64,000 nt of DNA from an uncultured Gemmatimonadales bacterium (GCA_963842945.1 CAWJIM010000002.1:64001-128000), one strand, 5' to 3'. Counted from the first letter of the stretch, positions 12,001-33,000 are shown. Made by a program: the numbers.

Positions 12001-15000
12001 TGTTTCCCAAAGTCTACCGGCGCCTGGCCCTGGCCCTGGGTCAGCGTGACGACGTACCCGGCGTCGTCGTTCACCCCAATCAGGCGGGCGGTCACAGTCG
12101 GCCGGCCATTGTTCGCTTTGGCCAGGGTGCCGGTCACGATAACCCGGGCCTGAATGTTTTTGGCCAGGGTAGTGGCCAGTGGCGGACTCAGAATGGCATC
12201 GATCGGATAGCCGTACTGCTTCAGCGCGTCGTTCATTTGAGTCTGTTCGATCACGGTGAAGTTCCGGCCTACGATGTCTTTGATCTCCTGACGCATCGCG
12301 GTTCCGATTTGCACCGCAGCCCCCGAGTCACCGGGAGCGTAAGCAAACGGGTTCGCGACCATCAGGCGCGGAGCATTCGTCACCGCTTGCGTGGTGCGAG
12401 CACCGCGAGGTATGCCTTGCGCAGCGAGAGGGGCGGACAGCGCAGCCGCAACCGCAGCAAATCCAACGAAACGCGACAGGTACATTCTGGATCTCCCCAA
12501 CAAGACGGCCCTCTTGGACCAACACAGTCCCGCCTAATGCGGGGACGAGTGGGCGAAGAGGGATTCGAACCCCCGACATCCTGCGTGTAAGGCAGGCGCT
12601 CTGAACCAGCTGAGCTATTCGCCCTGATCGAGCATCACGGCTGCTAAGTTTTTAGCGGTATCGCAGAGACCGTGCCGTGACGAGCAACACCCCGGCTACA
12701 AAGCGATGCCGATCGGAAACAGGACGCAATAACCGAAGACCAGGATCACCGCAGCTGCGCTAGGGTGACCGGCTCGAAGTGTCAGATACCCGATTACCAG
12801 CACGAGAACCGCCAGCGCCAGGATGATGAGGTTTCGTGGGGCCAGCACGAAATGCCTGGGCGGAGCCTGCCCCGGACGGGTGGAAGGGCGAGGATTCGAC
12901 ATATTGAGGATGAGGCTACTACGGTTCCCGGGTTCGGTCAAGTTCAGACGTGGCTGCGTCTTCCGGTGGAATCTCCCATCCTTCATCGAGCGCGGCCCGG
13001 CGCGGCAGGTCGGCAGCGCGACGGCGGCGCAGCAGGATCCAGAGGACCAGCGTGAGGACCCCCCACCCTCCCCCGGCCAGGATCCAGTTGGCCAGGCTGT
13101 ACCGCTGGCGAAGGCTTCGGCGCCATTCGACATCGAATTGAGGGACGGTTAGCCCGGTCGTGCGCTGCACAGCAATCTCGAAGTCCTGGCCCGCTCTAAG
13201 GAGGTCCAGCAGTGGAGTGAGCGAACGGGTGGGATTTCGGCGCGCGAGCTCGGTGACGGCCGAGGCCGCCAGGGCGTACGCGGCATCCGCCGTTGAGGCA
13301 GAGCCTCGAAGCGCCCCATCCAGACCGGGAAGATCGGGCACCGCTCCCCGGACCACGGCCAGGTTCAACTCGAGGCTACCCAGCCGCTCCCATTCGCCCG
13401 CTGCCCAGGCCGCATACCCCTCATCAAACCAGAGCGGGACTCTGACCCGTACAGCCTCATGAAGGGCCAGATGGGCCAGCTCGTGCCGCAAGGTTCGGTA
13501 GACGTCTCCCAGATCGGCCCGAAGGAGCACGATGCGCTCCCCCGGCAACGCCACCGCTGCGCCCCAGCCCGGCGCCCGGCCGGCAGAAAGAGAGTCGAGG
13601 CGTCGTGCATCGGGTACCACAATCAGCCGAAGGGGTCCGGGACTGCGGCGCCCCAGGCCGGGCCACTCAGTTGGCTCGGCCGCCCGGCGAGCGAGATCGG
13701 TAGCCAGCCGCAACTGCTCGGGCCAGGCCACAGCAGTAACGGGTCCAACCCGGATAGCTGTCGGTGGGTTCTGCGCGGGCGTGCCCGCCAGGATACTGAG
13801 TAGGACTAGGAGAGCGGACTGCGCGGGACTTCACCTCCGGCCGATGCAACCTCCAACATTTCCTGACACCGCTTGGCCCAGGGATTGAACTTGTTGGCTT
13901 TGTATCCGTCGGTCCAGACTCGAACGGCGCCTTCCCGCTCTCCGCCCAGCCAGAGAGCGCGACCCAGCTCGAAATAGGCCTCGATGAGGTTGGGGCCGAG
14001 CTTCAGAGTCTTGCGGAGAAAGGTCTGGGCATCTTCGTACATCTCCCGCTCCAGGTACACCAGACCGAGATAATAGTGAGCGTACAAGGTGGCCTTGCGG
14101 TCATTGTCCAGTCGAATGGCTTTGGACAGATGCTCGATGGCCTCCCCGAAGATCCCTTTCTTGAGACAAATATATCCGACGTTGATCCGGGCGAGCGCGT
14201 TGGCCGGTTCCTTCATCAGAACTTTGGAGAAGTTTCCCAGTGCCTCATCGTAGTTCTCGTTCAGCATCTGTGCCCAGCCCAGGAGCGATGTCGCGTGGAC
14301 CGCGCCGGGCGAAAGCGCCAGGGCCTTTTCCAGAGCCTGAATGGCACCACCATAATCGCCCAATGAGATCAGGCTCCAGCCCTTCTCGATATAGGTCGAG
14401 GCCCCCAGGTGGTCGGCGTGAACTGCGGGCCGCTCGCCGGTAAACTGTGGAGCCGCCGTGGCGTCGGCTCCGTTTGCCGTTTGCTTGTAGCGCTCGACCA
14501 GCTCCCGAATGCCTTCCTTGATCTGCCCCAGGTCCGTCAGGGCGCCGTCCACCCGCTTGAACAGAGAGATGATGTCCTTCTTCAGAGTATCCCGTTCACC
14601 ACCCGGTGCGTCCAGGCGGGCGGCCATTTCCGTCAGCTCCGCCTTGAAGGCGGTGAGCCAGGCTTGGGCCATCTACGCCGCCCCGAGCTCGCTCAGCGCC
14701 AACCGCTCGCTGGAGGAGAGCAGCTTGCGGGCGTTGAGCAGGATGATGGTGCGCTCCGGCCGGGAGATAATTCCGGAGATGTACGCCGCTGCCAGGCCAC
14801 TCACCACCGGGCCGGGCGGCGCGATGGCAGTACTGTCCACCCGCAGCACCTCGCGCACCTCATCTACCAGCACGGCCACCCGCTGCTTCTCCAGCTCCAG
14901 CACCATGACCCGCGTTTCCTCCCGTATCGGTGCATCCAGCTCGAAGCGTTTGCGCAAGTCAATTACGGGTACGGCGGTGTCGCCGTACGGCATCACGCCT

Positions 15001-30000: not shown

Positions 30001-33000
30001 TTTCCCACTCGAGCAAAGAGCTGTTGCAGGCTTTGAGATGCTCGCGGCTTTCCGCAACAAACAGGCTGGCGTACTTGGAGAGGTCCATGGATTACGCCAG
30101 GACGCGCTGTACCGCCTCGAGGACACGGGAGGGCTGGAAGGGCTTCACCACGAAATCCTTGGCACCGGCCTGGATCGCTTCGACGACGAGGGCCTGCTGC
30201 CCCATGGCGCTGCACATCAGGATCTTGGCCTCGGGGTCTGACTTGCAGATCTCCCGCACCGCCTCGATGCCGCCCATGTCGGGCATCACGATGTCCATGG
30301 TGACGAGATCGGGCTTGAGCTCGCGATACTTCGCGACCGCCTGTAACCCGGACTCGGCCTCGCCCACTACCTCGAAGCCCGCCTGGCTCAGGATGTCGCT
30401 GATCATCGTGCGCATGAAGATGGCGTCGTCGCAGACGAGCACGGTGTGGTTCACGGAACTCCTCCTTTAGCTTCCGATGATCGGCGCGAATACGGCATCA
30501 ACATCGAGCAGAATGAAGTGCCGGTTCGACTCCAGTCCTACCGCCTTGACCAACCGGGGATCGACCCCAGGGAGCTCCTGCCGCTCCACCACGGAGGCAG
30601 CGGGCACTTCGAGGAAATCCAGCACCTGGCCGACCCCAAGCCCGTAAGCCTTCCCTCTGACTTCGAGCACGACAATGGCGCCCTCGTCGGACAGTCGCCG
30701 CTCCTGTTGCAGGAGCATGTGCCCGTCGAGAACTGTCAGCAGGCTTCCTCGAACGTTGACCAGCCCTTCGACTGCGTCCGCCACCCCAGGAATGCGGGTG
30801 GCTGGGAGCCGGGGGAGGATCTCACGCACGATCCCTGCCGGGGCCGCGCAGACAATCTCACCGATTCGAAAAATGACGGCGTGAAGCGCGGAAGAGTTAG
30901 CCATCTCTATTGAAGAAACGAAGATAGCGGAGCGGGTCTGACCGATCAACCAGTTCTTTGCCACCAGCCAGAGCGAGTGCTGGACGTAAGTCGTCAGGCC
31001 ATTCGGCCGCGAACTCAAGTGGTGCTCCGCTCACAGGATGGCGGAATGCCAGAGCGGCCGCGTGCAGCGCTTGCCGCGGAGTGGTGCGGCCAAGCAGGTC
31101 GGCATTGCGCCGTTGCGCGCCGGAGATCCGCCGGCTCCCGCCTCCGCTGTAGATCGGATCGCCGACCACGGGGTGTCCCACATGCTCCAGATGCACTCTG
31201 ATCTGATGGGTTCGGCCGGTGTGCAGCTCCAGCCGAAGCAGATCGACCACATCGAATCGGGCGACCACGAAGGCGTCGGTGCGGGCGGCGCGGCCGTTGG
31301 CTACGATCGCCATGCGCTTCCGATCCTGGGGGTGCCGCGCCACGGGAGCCTCAATGACCAGAGGGCTGGAGTCGAGGTGTCCCCAGGCCAGGGCGGCATA
31401 GGTCCGGCGAACCCGTCGGGCGGCGATCGCAGCCCCCAGGCGCCGGTGCGCCAGATCAGTCTTCGCCACCAGCATCAAACCCGAGGTGTCACGATCCAGC
31501 CGGTGAACGATGCCGGGCCGGCCCTCGGCGCCTCCGGCCAGGGTTGTTCCCCGCGCGACCAGCGCGTTGACCAGAGTGTCGTCCCAGTGGCCTGGGGCCG
31601 GATGCACCACCAGCCCGGCCGGCTTGTCGATCACTGCCAGGTGCTCGTCTTCGAAGATGATGCTGAGCGGGATTGCGCGAGGCAGGAGCGTCCGCGGGGG
31701 TTCGGACTCAGGAAGGCGCACGGTCACGGTCTCACCCCGGGAGAGCAGCCGGGACGCCCGCGCGATTTTCCCTTCGACGCTGACCCGTTTTCCGGCGATC
31801 AGCCGGGCTGCCTGGGTTCTGGAGAATCCGAGCTGATCGCCGAGGAAGCGATCCAAACGCTCGGTTTGAGAGCTGAGAACAGTGAACGAGATTTCGTCAC
31901 TCACACCACCGAAGCCGATTCCGGCTCCGGGCGGTGGGCATCTTCCCGCCACAGCGAGATCGCCAGGGCGATGGCTCCGCAACTGACCGCGATGTCGGCC
32001 ACGTTGAAGGTGGGCCACCGCAGCGCGCCCACGCCGACATCGAGAAAGTCGACCACGCCCCGCGAGCTACGCACCCGGTCGATGAGATTTCCCACTGCAC
32101 CTCCCGCCACCAGGCCGAGGGCCAGCTGCCGGAAGCGGTCGCCCACGGGACTGGTGCGCGACATCCGCGCCAGCACGAAGACGGCAACCAGCGCCACCGT
32201 GAAGAAAATCCAGCGGGAGTACGGTCCGACGTGGAGGCCGAAGGCCGCGCCCTGGTTATACACCAGCCGCAGCTGGAACCAGTCCCCAAAGACCGAAATG
32301 CCCGGCGTGCGGAGCAGCGTGGCCTCGGCGATCAGCTTGGTGATCAGGTCGAGGACCACCGTTCCGACCGCGGCCCCAATGAAGACCCGCCGTTCCGGAC
32401 CGGCGATCAGAGGATCAGCGGCGCTTGCCATCTTCCTCTTTCTCCTTGCAGGTGATGCAGAGCCGGGCATGGGGCAAGGCGTCCAGCCGCTCGAAGTTGA
32501 TCTCCTGGCCGCACTGCTGGCAGTGACCGAACTTCTCGGGAGTGCCGTACAGCCGCCGCAGCGCCTCGTTCACATGCCAGAGATACCGGCCCTCCTGTGA
32601 GGCGAAGAGGAACTGCTTCTCCCGCTCCATCGCGTCGGTTCCCTGATCCGCCATATGAAAGGAATAGGAAGAGAGATCGCCGTCGGAGGACTGCAGCGTG
32701 GCGTTGAAGGACTCGTCATAGTACCCCAGCTCCTTCATGACGCGGGCGCGCTCCTCCATGAGGCGCTTCTCGAGATGGCTCAGCTGTTTCTTATTCATCA
32801 CTCGTCCATGGTTGAGGGCCGGCTGAAGTCCGACCGTCCTGATATCGTTGTACTCCCACCACCGCCCCGTTTCCATCCATCTCCACCCGCTGCTCCAGGT
32901 CCGGCGCGGGCGCCCGCGCAGCCACTTCCAGATTCCGGGCCAGGGTCTCCCCCCGGATGAAGCTCGCATGCGCGCGGACGGCCTCCAGCACCGGTGCATC

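Follow-up and report, generated by a model that had tools for sequence, protein, structure and literature searches.

What does a protein built on the ATPase fold of the replication initiator DnaA do inside a chemosensory operon? The window that we analysed, a 64,000-nucleotide stretch from an uncultured Gemmatimonadales bacterium, contains 19 tightly coupled minus-strand ORFs, of which cheW (30467-30904) is the first and a TPR gene (13806-14672) the last, at spacings of -89 to +12 nt. The row comprises three CheW, CheY, CheA, CheC, CheR, CheD, CheB and small GTPase families together with Roadblock genes, two DUF4388 proteins and TPR genes, and mglA overlaps the start of the gene for the 665-aa DnaA-type protein by 4 nt (Table 1). 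The genome has another mglA at C2:302-303 kb.

Table 1 Features of the operon and of the 665-aa protein, in window positions
Feature	Position	Strand	Basis or remark
cheW, cheY, cheA (with P2), cheC	27599..30904	-	family matches
922-aa TPR protein	24826..27594	-	family match
PATAN1: PATAN (DUF4388), MshEN-like c-di-GMP motif, short TPR	23785..24822	-	family matches
TPR-Roadblock fusion	22944..23792	-	family match
Roadblock protein, 115 aa	22600..22947	-	family match
Roadblock protein, MglB-like (below NCBIfam cut-off)	22139..22600	-	family match
MglA-type small GTPase	21533..22135	-	family match
Tandem DnaA-type AAA+ protein, 665 aa (P0001)	19539..21536	-	family matches, model
AAA+ module 1, aa 5-225	20862..21524	-	Walker A/B, sensor I and sensor II kept
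Disordered acidic spacer, aa 240-274	20715..20819	-	pLDDT <50 at 240-276
EF helix (aa 276-294), then one W..EG-type helical unit	20388..20717	-	sequence comparison
AAA+ module 2, aa 392-620	19677..20363	-	R202/R206/R264/L269 equivalents and ssDNA residues mostly kept
C-terminal tail, aa 643-665, EKxVWxWP...R..EE	19542..19610	-	constant part; predicted TPR ligand
PATAN2: PATAN (DUF4388)-MshEN-like insert-TPR gene, two ORFs here	17922..19548	-	family matches; predicted tail partner
cheR, cheD, cheB, cheW, cheW	14673..17925	-	family matches
288-aa TPR protein	13806..14672	-	family match
Peptidase MA superfamily gene	12919..13731	-	beyond the limits first described

A preliminary description had presented this stretch as a row of 19 genes ending at 13806 and 30904, with a full chemosensory set and two Roadblock genes. 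The coupling between those limits stands, and the row continues beyond each of them: rluD and cheW share an overlap of 8 nt, and the peptidase-MA gene, retained downstream in many loci (L051, L059 and L060 among them), follows after 74 nt. A frame change near 18355 splits a single PATAN-TPR gene of ~538 aa into the ORFs 18229-19548 and 17922-18317, so that the row holds 18 genes rather than 19. In this assembly the frameshift falls inside the predicted tail-binding groove described below; no public contig bridged it, and one near-identical contig ends at 18354. The named Che genes are all there, with no chemoreceptor in the operon and three elsewhere in the genome. Both Roadblock genes were found, plus a third Roadblock domain fused to TPRs; the MglB model reached 35 bits against a cut-off of 200. 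RNA-library pieces did not show transcription, and the promoter and terminator scan was near chance (4 versus 1.8; 4 versus 10).

The 665-aa protein carries two Bac_DnaA stretches (E 4e-90) with Walker A motifs at residues 48-53 and 431-436 and, among 14 families at E≤0.01, no match to DnaA_N (domain I) or Bac_DnaA_C (domain IV), as had been described. Its AAA+ core aligns gap-free with residues 111-332 of B. subtilis DnaA and matches the fold of DnaA domain III with a TM-score of 0.92 over the target (rmsd 1.8 Å). The two modules are 33% identical to each other. In the structural model (pLDDT 87.6, pTM 0.51), which does not fix their relative placing, no domain follows residue 620. The acidic spacer has 15% identity to a same-genus orthologue. 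The protein passes TIGR00362 through the sum of its two modules, from which 'initiator' names in databases may follow. The dnaA gene itself is elsewhere, as also stated previously: near 517 kb of contig C19 there is a second DnaA-type gene, which has the initiator residues and clusters with canonical DnaA. We also considered the type II AAA+ proteins (p97/Cdc48), which share the tandem arrangement, but both modules are DnaA-type (43% identity to DnaA, 14% to p97) rather than of the classic clade, and this assignment was rejected.

Residues were counted in 32 tandem proteins using B. subtilis DnaA numbering (PMC6669920). Module 1 keeps D248 (31/32), R313 (30/32), R264 (29/32) and F218 (26/32); R206 is found in 2/32, and I190 and K222 in none (0/32 each). 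Module 2 keeps L269 in all 32 and R202, R206 and R264 in 30/32 each, with D248 in 13/32 and F218 in 5/32; I/V190 is present in 27/32 and K222 in 20/32. The equivalents of E183 and N187 are altered in both modules. The window's own protein follows these losses, module 1 lacking the ssDNA residues and the R206 equivalent and module 2 having an eroded sensor I and lid. Judged by these residues, module 1 retains the ATP site and module 2 the arginine-finger face. When the ssDNA residues I190/K222 and the filament residues of an initiator were sought together in one module, neither module was complete. Families, loci and residues support the earlier view that a DnaA paralogue which is no initiator lies within a conserved Che-MglA-PATAN block. 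I/V190 and K222 of module 2 are unexplained by a DNA-free role and count against it.

The constant part of the gene is a C-terminal tail of ~25 aa together with the short EF helix. Among 102 usable genomes of the class, the tail and the PATAN-TPR gene occur together in 84 and neither was found in 18; these counts overstate independence, as the genomes are related, and the tail profile drew rows from 38 of the 84. Two ATPase modules are present in 75 of the tail-positive genomes, which replaces the earlier claim of universality in the class (15 of 15) by 75/102. Another three have one module, and the remaining six hold only a mini-gene, a 60-75-aa ORF of EF helix plus tail directly upstream of PATAN-TPR. 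These six genomes, from three genera and possibly reflecting three events, have canonical dnaA as their only DnaA-type gene. A tail profile built without the mini-genes recovered five of them at E≤1.4e-5 and the sixth at E 0.19 among 2458 ORFs. The tail gene stands immediately before PATAN-TPR in all 40 loci that were read, and genomes G070 and G072 also keep the tail. Tryptophan W653 is invariant (43/43 rows), and the profile had no match in PDB or NCBIfam. Loss of the PATAN domain along with the ATPase was rejected; instead, five of the six mini-gene genomes lack the MshEN-like insert. As a cause of tail conservation, a ribosome-binding-site artefact may account for the final EE codons, but R659 is encoded by six different codons and W653 stands 13 codons ahead of the stop.

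Genes from other classes (L055-L060) encode a single AAA+ module beside a TPR-only neighbour, and their tails align by position. Their matches in the genome-wide tail search arise by construction, and a profile lacking their tails fails to find them (best E 4.4). The PATAN-TPR domain is the best match of the TPR neighbour in four of the six. A relationship to the tail/PATAN-TPR pair is suggested at most.

The tail is predicted to dock in the groove of the TPR domain of the PATAN-TPR protein. The complex was modelled for the single-module pair of a relative (L052), not for the window's proteins, alongside three controls. This pair reached an ipSAE of 0.83 (0.82/0.88/0.83) versus 0.00 for the best of the controls; the runs agreed in ≥86% of contacts and partner pLDDT was ≥78. 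Of solved pairs 116 of 157 pass this mark, and of mismatched pairs 2 of 215, a calibration that is rough for complexes modelled with their own alignments, and the score may profit from likeness because TPR-peptide complexes are common among solved structures. Every confident contact joins tail residues 361-389 to TPR residues 263-495. Groove residues Y263, R298, N325, N428 and N463 are kept in 36-39 of 40 rows; taken as a set, the predicted interface columns were not significantly better conserved than other TPR columns (0.62 versus 0.57, p=0.097).

On balance, we think it probable that the protein is no initiator and serves as a subunit anchored by its tail to the PATAN-TPR protein of the next gene downstream. 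The final ~25 residues would sit in the TPR groove, consistent with the observed co-inheritance, and the EF helix could make a second fixed contact with another partner, leaving the two DnaA-type modules as optional cargo. Residue conservation suggests that the ATP site of module 1 receives its arginine-finger face from module 2, which would yield a stretch of DnaA filament that limits itself to two subunits, is switchable by ATP and does not polymerise on DNA. Against this stand the retention of R264 in module 1 as well and a model that does not fix how the two modules lie to each other. The complex may modulate a PATAN-TPR effector that likely binds c-di-GMP and would take input from the Che phosphorelay and the MglA/Roadblock switch of the operon. 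By analogy, the most likely output is type IV pili or cell polarity, and flagella are less likely: PATAN domains of Synechocystis bind PilB1 (bioRxiv 2021.06.11.447907), and M. xanthus MglA acts on pili via a TPR protein (PMC7519303). PilB and PilT scored above their cut-offs in the window's genome. FliG was found neither in that genome (86.9% complete) nor in seven usable genomes of the same genus, and across the two main families FliG occurs in 20 and the tail in 78 of 82 genomes.

Other roles for the same architecture have to be weighed. The protein might regulate the true DnaA from a fixed place, in the way of Hda or as a filament cap, tethered by its tail to the PATAN-TPR protein and with module 2 engaging DnaA-ATP or origin ssDNA, so that initiation of replication would be gated by chemosensory, c-di-GMP and MglA signals. 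The retention of R202, R206, R264, L269, I/V190 and K222 in module 2 would fit this role, as would Hda being among the second-best NCBIfam classes and the lack of any DnaA/Hda-type gene beyond dnaA and this one in a tblastn search of the genome. We nevertheless consider it unlikely: of the 84 tail genomes, 3 lack module 2 and 6 lack both modules, a search of the 102 genomes did not find the gene in 18, the Hda family TIGR03420 stops at 150.2 bits against a cut-off of 194.8, a sliding-clamp motif (pattern from general knowledge) occurs in 0/41 proteins, E183 and N187 are altered and no replication gene was found among the scanned window genes. A further view, that the modules are decaying passengers of a DnaA fusion without a signalling role and that the peptide alone counts, perhaps by helping the TPR protein to fold or to stay stable, draws on the natural loss of one or both modules, the absent module-2 lid (6/32) and degenerate motifs in members such as L053 and L050. 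It is the least plausible, given the tandem form in 75/84, the Walker A lysine and Walker B aspartate of module 1 in 35/35 proteins, and a module 1 that is 92% identical to that of a same-genus orthologue, where 106 of the 204 residues that agree show a synonymous codon change.

The earlier proposal of a switch or scaffold for MglA, which we extend to a tail that binds a Roadblock (MglC-like) dimer like RomR's C-terminal helix in M. xanthus, now appears quite improbable. The overlap with mglA and its position before the tail gene in 36 of 40 loci speak for it, as does the spacing of tail residues E647, K648 and W651, which matches E390, K391 and W394 of RomR, whose binding to MglC needs W394 and uses the other two (PMC12719032). 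This likeness is limited to the E-K-x-x-W spacing and three residues; the invariant tryptophan is W653 instead of W651, and R659 occupies the position of RomR E402. The tail gene stays with PATAN-TPR in four loci without operon mglA (L051, L071, L072 and L073), while the ATPase modules are absent where mglA stays (L074, L075 and L076). Of the 40 loci, 8 have no Roadblock genes, and several are without cheR, cheB or all of the Che genes, so 'hard-wired', as first suggested, is too strong for the module. A similar AAA+/TPR pair is present in five genomes of other classes that gave no Roadblock or DUF4388 match, and the single interaction modelled here, that of the tail and PATAN-TPR, passed.

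The AAA+ core is shared with domain III of DnaA from B. subtilis (8BV3/8BTG), T. maritima (2Z4R) and A. aeolicus (1L8Q/2HCB), but the present protein has two modules per chain with complementary losses, lacks domains I and IV, adds a helical unit and a tail, and coexists with a canonical dnaA. Hda likewise is a DnaA-type AAA+ protein without domain IV that keeps the arginine finger; unlike it, this protein is 665 aa long, coupled to PATAN-TPR and from another phylum. The link between MglA and PATAN is not new: group 1 MglA systems have PATAN neighbours, and a published Gemmatimonas row, 'PATAN>MglA>-PATAN>' at GAU_1409 (PMC4316618), fits the order in L042, L046, L047 and L048. We infer that its dash is the tandem DnaA-type gene; 'DnaA' is absent from the main text and the three supplementary files searched. 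In contrast to those rows, the module here sits inside a Che operon. The M. xanthus Frz-MglA/MglB/MglC/RomR-SgmX circuit similarly combines chemosensory input, MglA, Roadblock paralogues and TPR proteins, with pili as the likely common output; what sets the present system apart is that everything lies in a single operon, which also encodes CheC/CheD, PATAN-MshEN-like-TPR proteins and a subunit derived from DnaA.

To our knowledge, the characterised DnaA-clade ATPases (DnaA, Hda, DnaC and IstB) all act on DNA. The constancy of the tail with its predicted docking, and its survival alone in some species, point to a possible non-replicative, signalling use of the DnaA fold, in a family that occupies a signalling operon in most sampled Gemmatimonadales and is often named 'replication initiator' in databases. 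Our searches of an open-access library found no description of this tandem DnaA-type/tail family. The natural deletion series (two modules, one, none) points to a minimal unit of 60 residues with a predicted binding site, which makes a first biochemical test cheap, and the tail is a candidate for what a PATAN-TPR protein binds in bacteria other than cyanobacteria.

The middle helical unit, for which Pfam has no family, links the protein to unexplained, at least partly archaeal DnaA-type proteins, in which it recurs as tandem repeats (HHalign 97.7%, E 1.4e-12). Searches of the unit gave nothing in the ESM Atlas and uninformative helical rods by fold (best Z 5.9); the single-module form matched Gemmatimonadota clusters and short AAA+ clusters only. 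The repeat proteins (P0136, P0278, P0297 and kin) share the unit and a DnaA AAA+ without domain IV, but have 1-11 unit copies ahead of a single, fully conserved AAA+ that is followed by a zinc ribbon or DUF835, and no tail was found among P0122-P0271. Some are named as Thermoplasmata, a naming that covers two clusters and makes the set at least partly archaeal. A named-genome search gave 79 records from bacteria plus one contig labelled as archaeal, whose protein groups with clostridial DnaA and whose genome lacks the unit. The idea that the archaeal N-terminal domain is a fused PATAN (a 'Rosetta stone') was not borne out by HHalign (probability 0.5-2.4%, E 0.02-0.12). It is conceivable, though we doubt it, that the unit marks an old bacterial-archaeal non-initiator family whose ATPase is here pinned by the tail to a c-di-GMP-sensing PATAN-TPR protein that Che and MglA control, with module 2, through its retained filament face and ssDNA residues, capping or inactivating the true DnaA and so wiring the operon of a Ras-like GTPase and chemosensory genes to replication initiation. 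A possible single clade of the AAA+ domains drew support of 59/4, and a grouping with Gemmatimonadota DnaA is not rejected (p-AU 0.645).

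The minus-strand row of 19 genes in the preliminary description was recovered as 19 open reading frames (ORFs; 13806–30904) whose spacings run from −89 to +12 nt, but two of them form a single split gene. ORFs 18229–19548 and 17922–18317, read in different frames, correspond to residues 1–404 and 396–538 of a single intact orthologue, and we therefore treat them as one gene, encoding PATAN-TPR (DUF4388, an MshEN-like insert and TPRs). The frame change, at about 18355, falls within the part of the gene that encodes the predicted tail-binding groove and may be an assembly error; the gene is unbroken in the orthologues aligned. 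Family scans of the row genes returned the families first named, and the domain content of P0001 (19539–21536, 665 aa) was likewise as described: two Bac_DnaA stretches with no domain I or IV match, and a canonical-type dnaA elsewhere in the genome, on contig C19. The MshE-related c-di-GMP motif model scored both PATAN-TPR and PATAN1, the other DUF4388 protein, above its cut-off. The operon contains no chemoreceptor gene; three MCP genes scored above cut-off elsewhere in the genome. On the 5′ side of the block, on the same strand, an isoleucyl-tRNA ligase fragment (the ligase is spread over more than one ORF in the window), a dksA-like gene, a 189-aa ORF and rluD form a series with overlaps (30897–35089), and most loci are alike. 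A peptidase MA gene (12919–13731) keeps its place on the 3′ side, including in reduced loci and in L059 and L060, two loci of another class.

The structure model of P0001 (pLDDT 87.6, pTM 0.51) gave the parts listed in the table; it does not give the relative placing of the two modules, which are 33% identical.

Parts of the tandem AAA+ protein P0001 in its structure model
Part	Residues (aa)	Position
Module 1	5–225	
Disordered acidic spacer		between module 1 and helical part
Helical part	276–383	
Module 2	392–620	
Disordered stretch, then terminal helix		after module 2

Module 1 aligns with B. subtilis DnaA without gaps at an offset of +106, so the residues shown to be essential in PMC6669920 can be read in P0001. 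In module 1, 31 of 32 tandem proteins retain sensor I, 30 sensor II, 26 F218, 27 G317 and 29 R264 (B. subtilis numbering throughout), while I190 and K222 occur in none and R206 in two. Module 2 keeps R202, R206 and R264 (30/32 each), L269 (32/32), I/V190 (27/32) and K222 (20/32), with D248 in only 13 proteins, F218 in only five and the lid absent from six. The same positions are largely fixed in 100 canonical DnaA sequences. Which of these residues belong to an ATP face and which to an arginine-finger face was decided from the legend order in PMC6669920 and from general knowledge of DnaA structures. This residue split suggests that the ATP site of module 1 may be completed by module 2, in a pair without extension to a long filament.

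We sampled 121 genomes of the phylum, 104 of them in the window's class, and used 102 of these, two unpublished ones being left out; related genomes are not independent samples, and the counts are to be read accordingly. The tandem form was present in 75 of 102 and a single module in three (G047, G082 and G104), and only canonical dnaA was matched in 24. Co-inheritance was complete for PATAN-TPR, strongly matched in 84 of the 102, and the tail (aa 643–665 of P0001), whose profile matched the same 84, 38 of which had supplied rows to it; neither was found in the other 18. Six genomes from three genera (G034, G045, G050, G070, G072 and G112) have PATAN-TPR without the extra ATPase, and each carries an ORF of 60–75 residues that consists of the EF helix (aa 276–294 in P0001) and the tail and ends at the PATAN-TPR start, a natural deletion series. 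With a tail profile built without these six, five were recovered with E ≤ 1.4e-5, and the sixth had an E of 0.19. In five of the six (L071–L075), PATAN-TPR lacks the MshEN-like insert and its TPR array is shorter; loss of the ATPase and of the c-di-GMP motif may be linked.

Gene order was read in 40 class loci picked for spread. The tail gene directly precedes PATAN-TPR in all 40 (in L040 with the tail in a shifted frame), mglA lies directly 5′ of the tail gene in 36, and Roadblock genes are absent from eight. At locus L051, rluD, the tandem gene, PATAN-TPR and the peptidase gene are all present, and neither Che genes nor mglA intervene. L064 (G036) and genus g10 have an operon mglA of only 38% identity and reduced forms of the large TPR and PATAN1 genes; identity stays at ~50% for the tandem ATPase and PATAN-TPR. 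Four genomes also encode extra, off-operon DUF4388 proteins (L078–L081; frames of 400–970 aa), 51–61% identical to the N-terminal half of PATAN-TPR.

Outside the class, a single-module gene of ~350 aa lies 5′ of a TPR-only gene in 6 of 17 genomes. Of these six, the five that were tested gave no DUF4388 or Roadblock match, and three gave no MglA match. Alignment of the tails rests on position alone, and the best match of the TPR neighbour is PATAN-TPR in four of six. Kinship of these pairs to the P0001 family is thus weaker than their appearance suggests.

Given the co-inheritance of tail and PATAN-TPR, we chose the L052 pair for complex modelling, using the whole PATAN-TPR (542 aa, 40-row alignment) and residues 250–392 of its single-module neighbour (25 rows). 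The complex scored 0.83 (0.82, 0.88 and 0.83), against 0.00 for the best of three controls, with at least 86% contact agreement between runs and a partner pLDDT of at least 78. Of 157 solved complexes, 116 reach the score mark, as do 2 of 215 mismatched pairs; with our own alignments these figures are only approximate. Confident contacts join tail residues 361–389 to the TPR array (263–495) and nothing else. Groove residues Y263 (39 of 40 rows), R298 (36), N325 (39), N428 (36) and N463 (39) are nearly fixed; groove asparagines are a general TPR feature, and conservation over all 53 interface columns was not significantly above that of the 197 others (p = 0.097). The model supports binding of the tail in the TPR groove of PATAN-TPR.

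We lean modestly towards an account in which the tail would sit in that groove, modules 1 and 2 would form an internal dimer switching with ATP, PATAN-TPR would bind c-di-GMP, and the output would go to pili or polarity. PilB and PilT score above cut-offs in the window's genome. Of the 82 genomes that make up the two main families, FliG was found in 20 and the tail in 78, and no FliG was found in the window's genus. PilB1 of Synechocystis is a binding partner of PATAN domains (bioRxiv 10.1101/2021.06.11.447907), and M. xanthus MglA acts through the TPR protein SgmX (PMC7519303).

MglA itself had been proposed as the partner of P0001. A direct MglA or RomR-like role would fit the E-K-x-x-W spacing of the tail, which equals that of the RomR residues in PMC12719032. 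Such a role is nevertheless improbable, since the tail is also kept where mglA or Roadblock genes are missing from its neighbourhood, and the link lies with PATAN-TPR instead. P0001 might alternatively be a tethered regulator of the true DnaA, a reading we keep as unlikely rather than negligible because module 2 retains DNA-side residues; against it, module 2 is dispensable and a clamp motif was looked for and not found. That the ATPase modules are a decaying passenger seems improbable too, slightly more so than the MglA or RomR-like role. The P0001 family is real and conserved, is neither DnaA nor Hda by the tests run, and is tied to PATAN-TPR rather than to MglA.

MglA beside PATAN genes has already been published (PMC4316618), including a Gemmatimonas row 'PATAN>MglA>-PATAN>' in its supplement (among the matches listed, PATAN places 1–32 of 57); DnaA is not named in its text and supplement portions covered. 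Our search of the open-access literature, partly by title and abstract start, found no paper on a DnaA-like protein with PATAN/DUF4388 or on Gemmatimonadota together with MglA, and as far as searched the P0001 family is undescribed. The operon is a chemosensory–MglA–PATAN circuit in a new form, with an unusual DnaA-derived subunit.

The helical unit, a W..EG-type stretch after the EF helix, matched no Pfam family and gave no informative fold match. Its profile, run against 1.84 billion representatives, returned 470 matches at E ≤ 0.001, the best 150 of which, as examined, included paralogues and long proteins with 4–24 matched stretches. Among 34 listed long proteins scanned, five had DnaA AAA+ without domain IV, four of these with zinc ribbons, and two others had DUF835. 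A follow-up search added 38 relatives with up to 11 unit copies; names were scarce (two clusters 'Thermoplasmata archaeon', one 'Candidatus Wallbacteria'). Conversely, a profile of 53 repeats from 11 such proteins found P0001 alone among 40,392 ORFs of the genome (E 1.7e-4) and scored the 32 units of the tandem proteins at 15–42 bits, where reversed copies did not exceed 7.6; HHalign gave 97.7%. These reciprocal matches indicate that the unit is homologous between the two groups. The AAA+ of these long repeat proteins keeps all initiator residues (22 rows, including the probable contaminant L116 and proteins without a known taxon). L116 is a contig labelled Thermoplasmatales; its DnaA clusters with clostridial DnaA, and the contig is probably a contaminant. 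In trees, Gemmatimonadota DnaA forms one group (support 99/97), and the paralogue is accepted either beside this group (p-AU 0.645) or beside the repeat proteins (support 59/4).

In proteins P0242, P0265 and P0231 the unit follows an N-terminal domain weakly like Fe_hyd_lg_C that replaces the AAA+, and P0242 also has the tail; a relative of this domain, without unit or tail, lies on C19 of the window's genome (20904–21629). P0293 (1893 aa), in which MshEN is N-terminal and 1400 residues separate two DnaA-type AAA+ domains, and P0306 (1830 aa, named Poribacteria), with two DnaA-type AAA+ matches, appear from their domain matches to be other non-initiator DnaA architectures.
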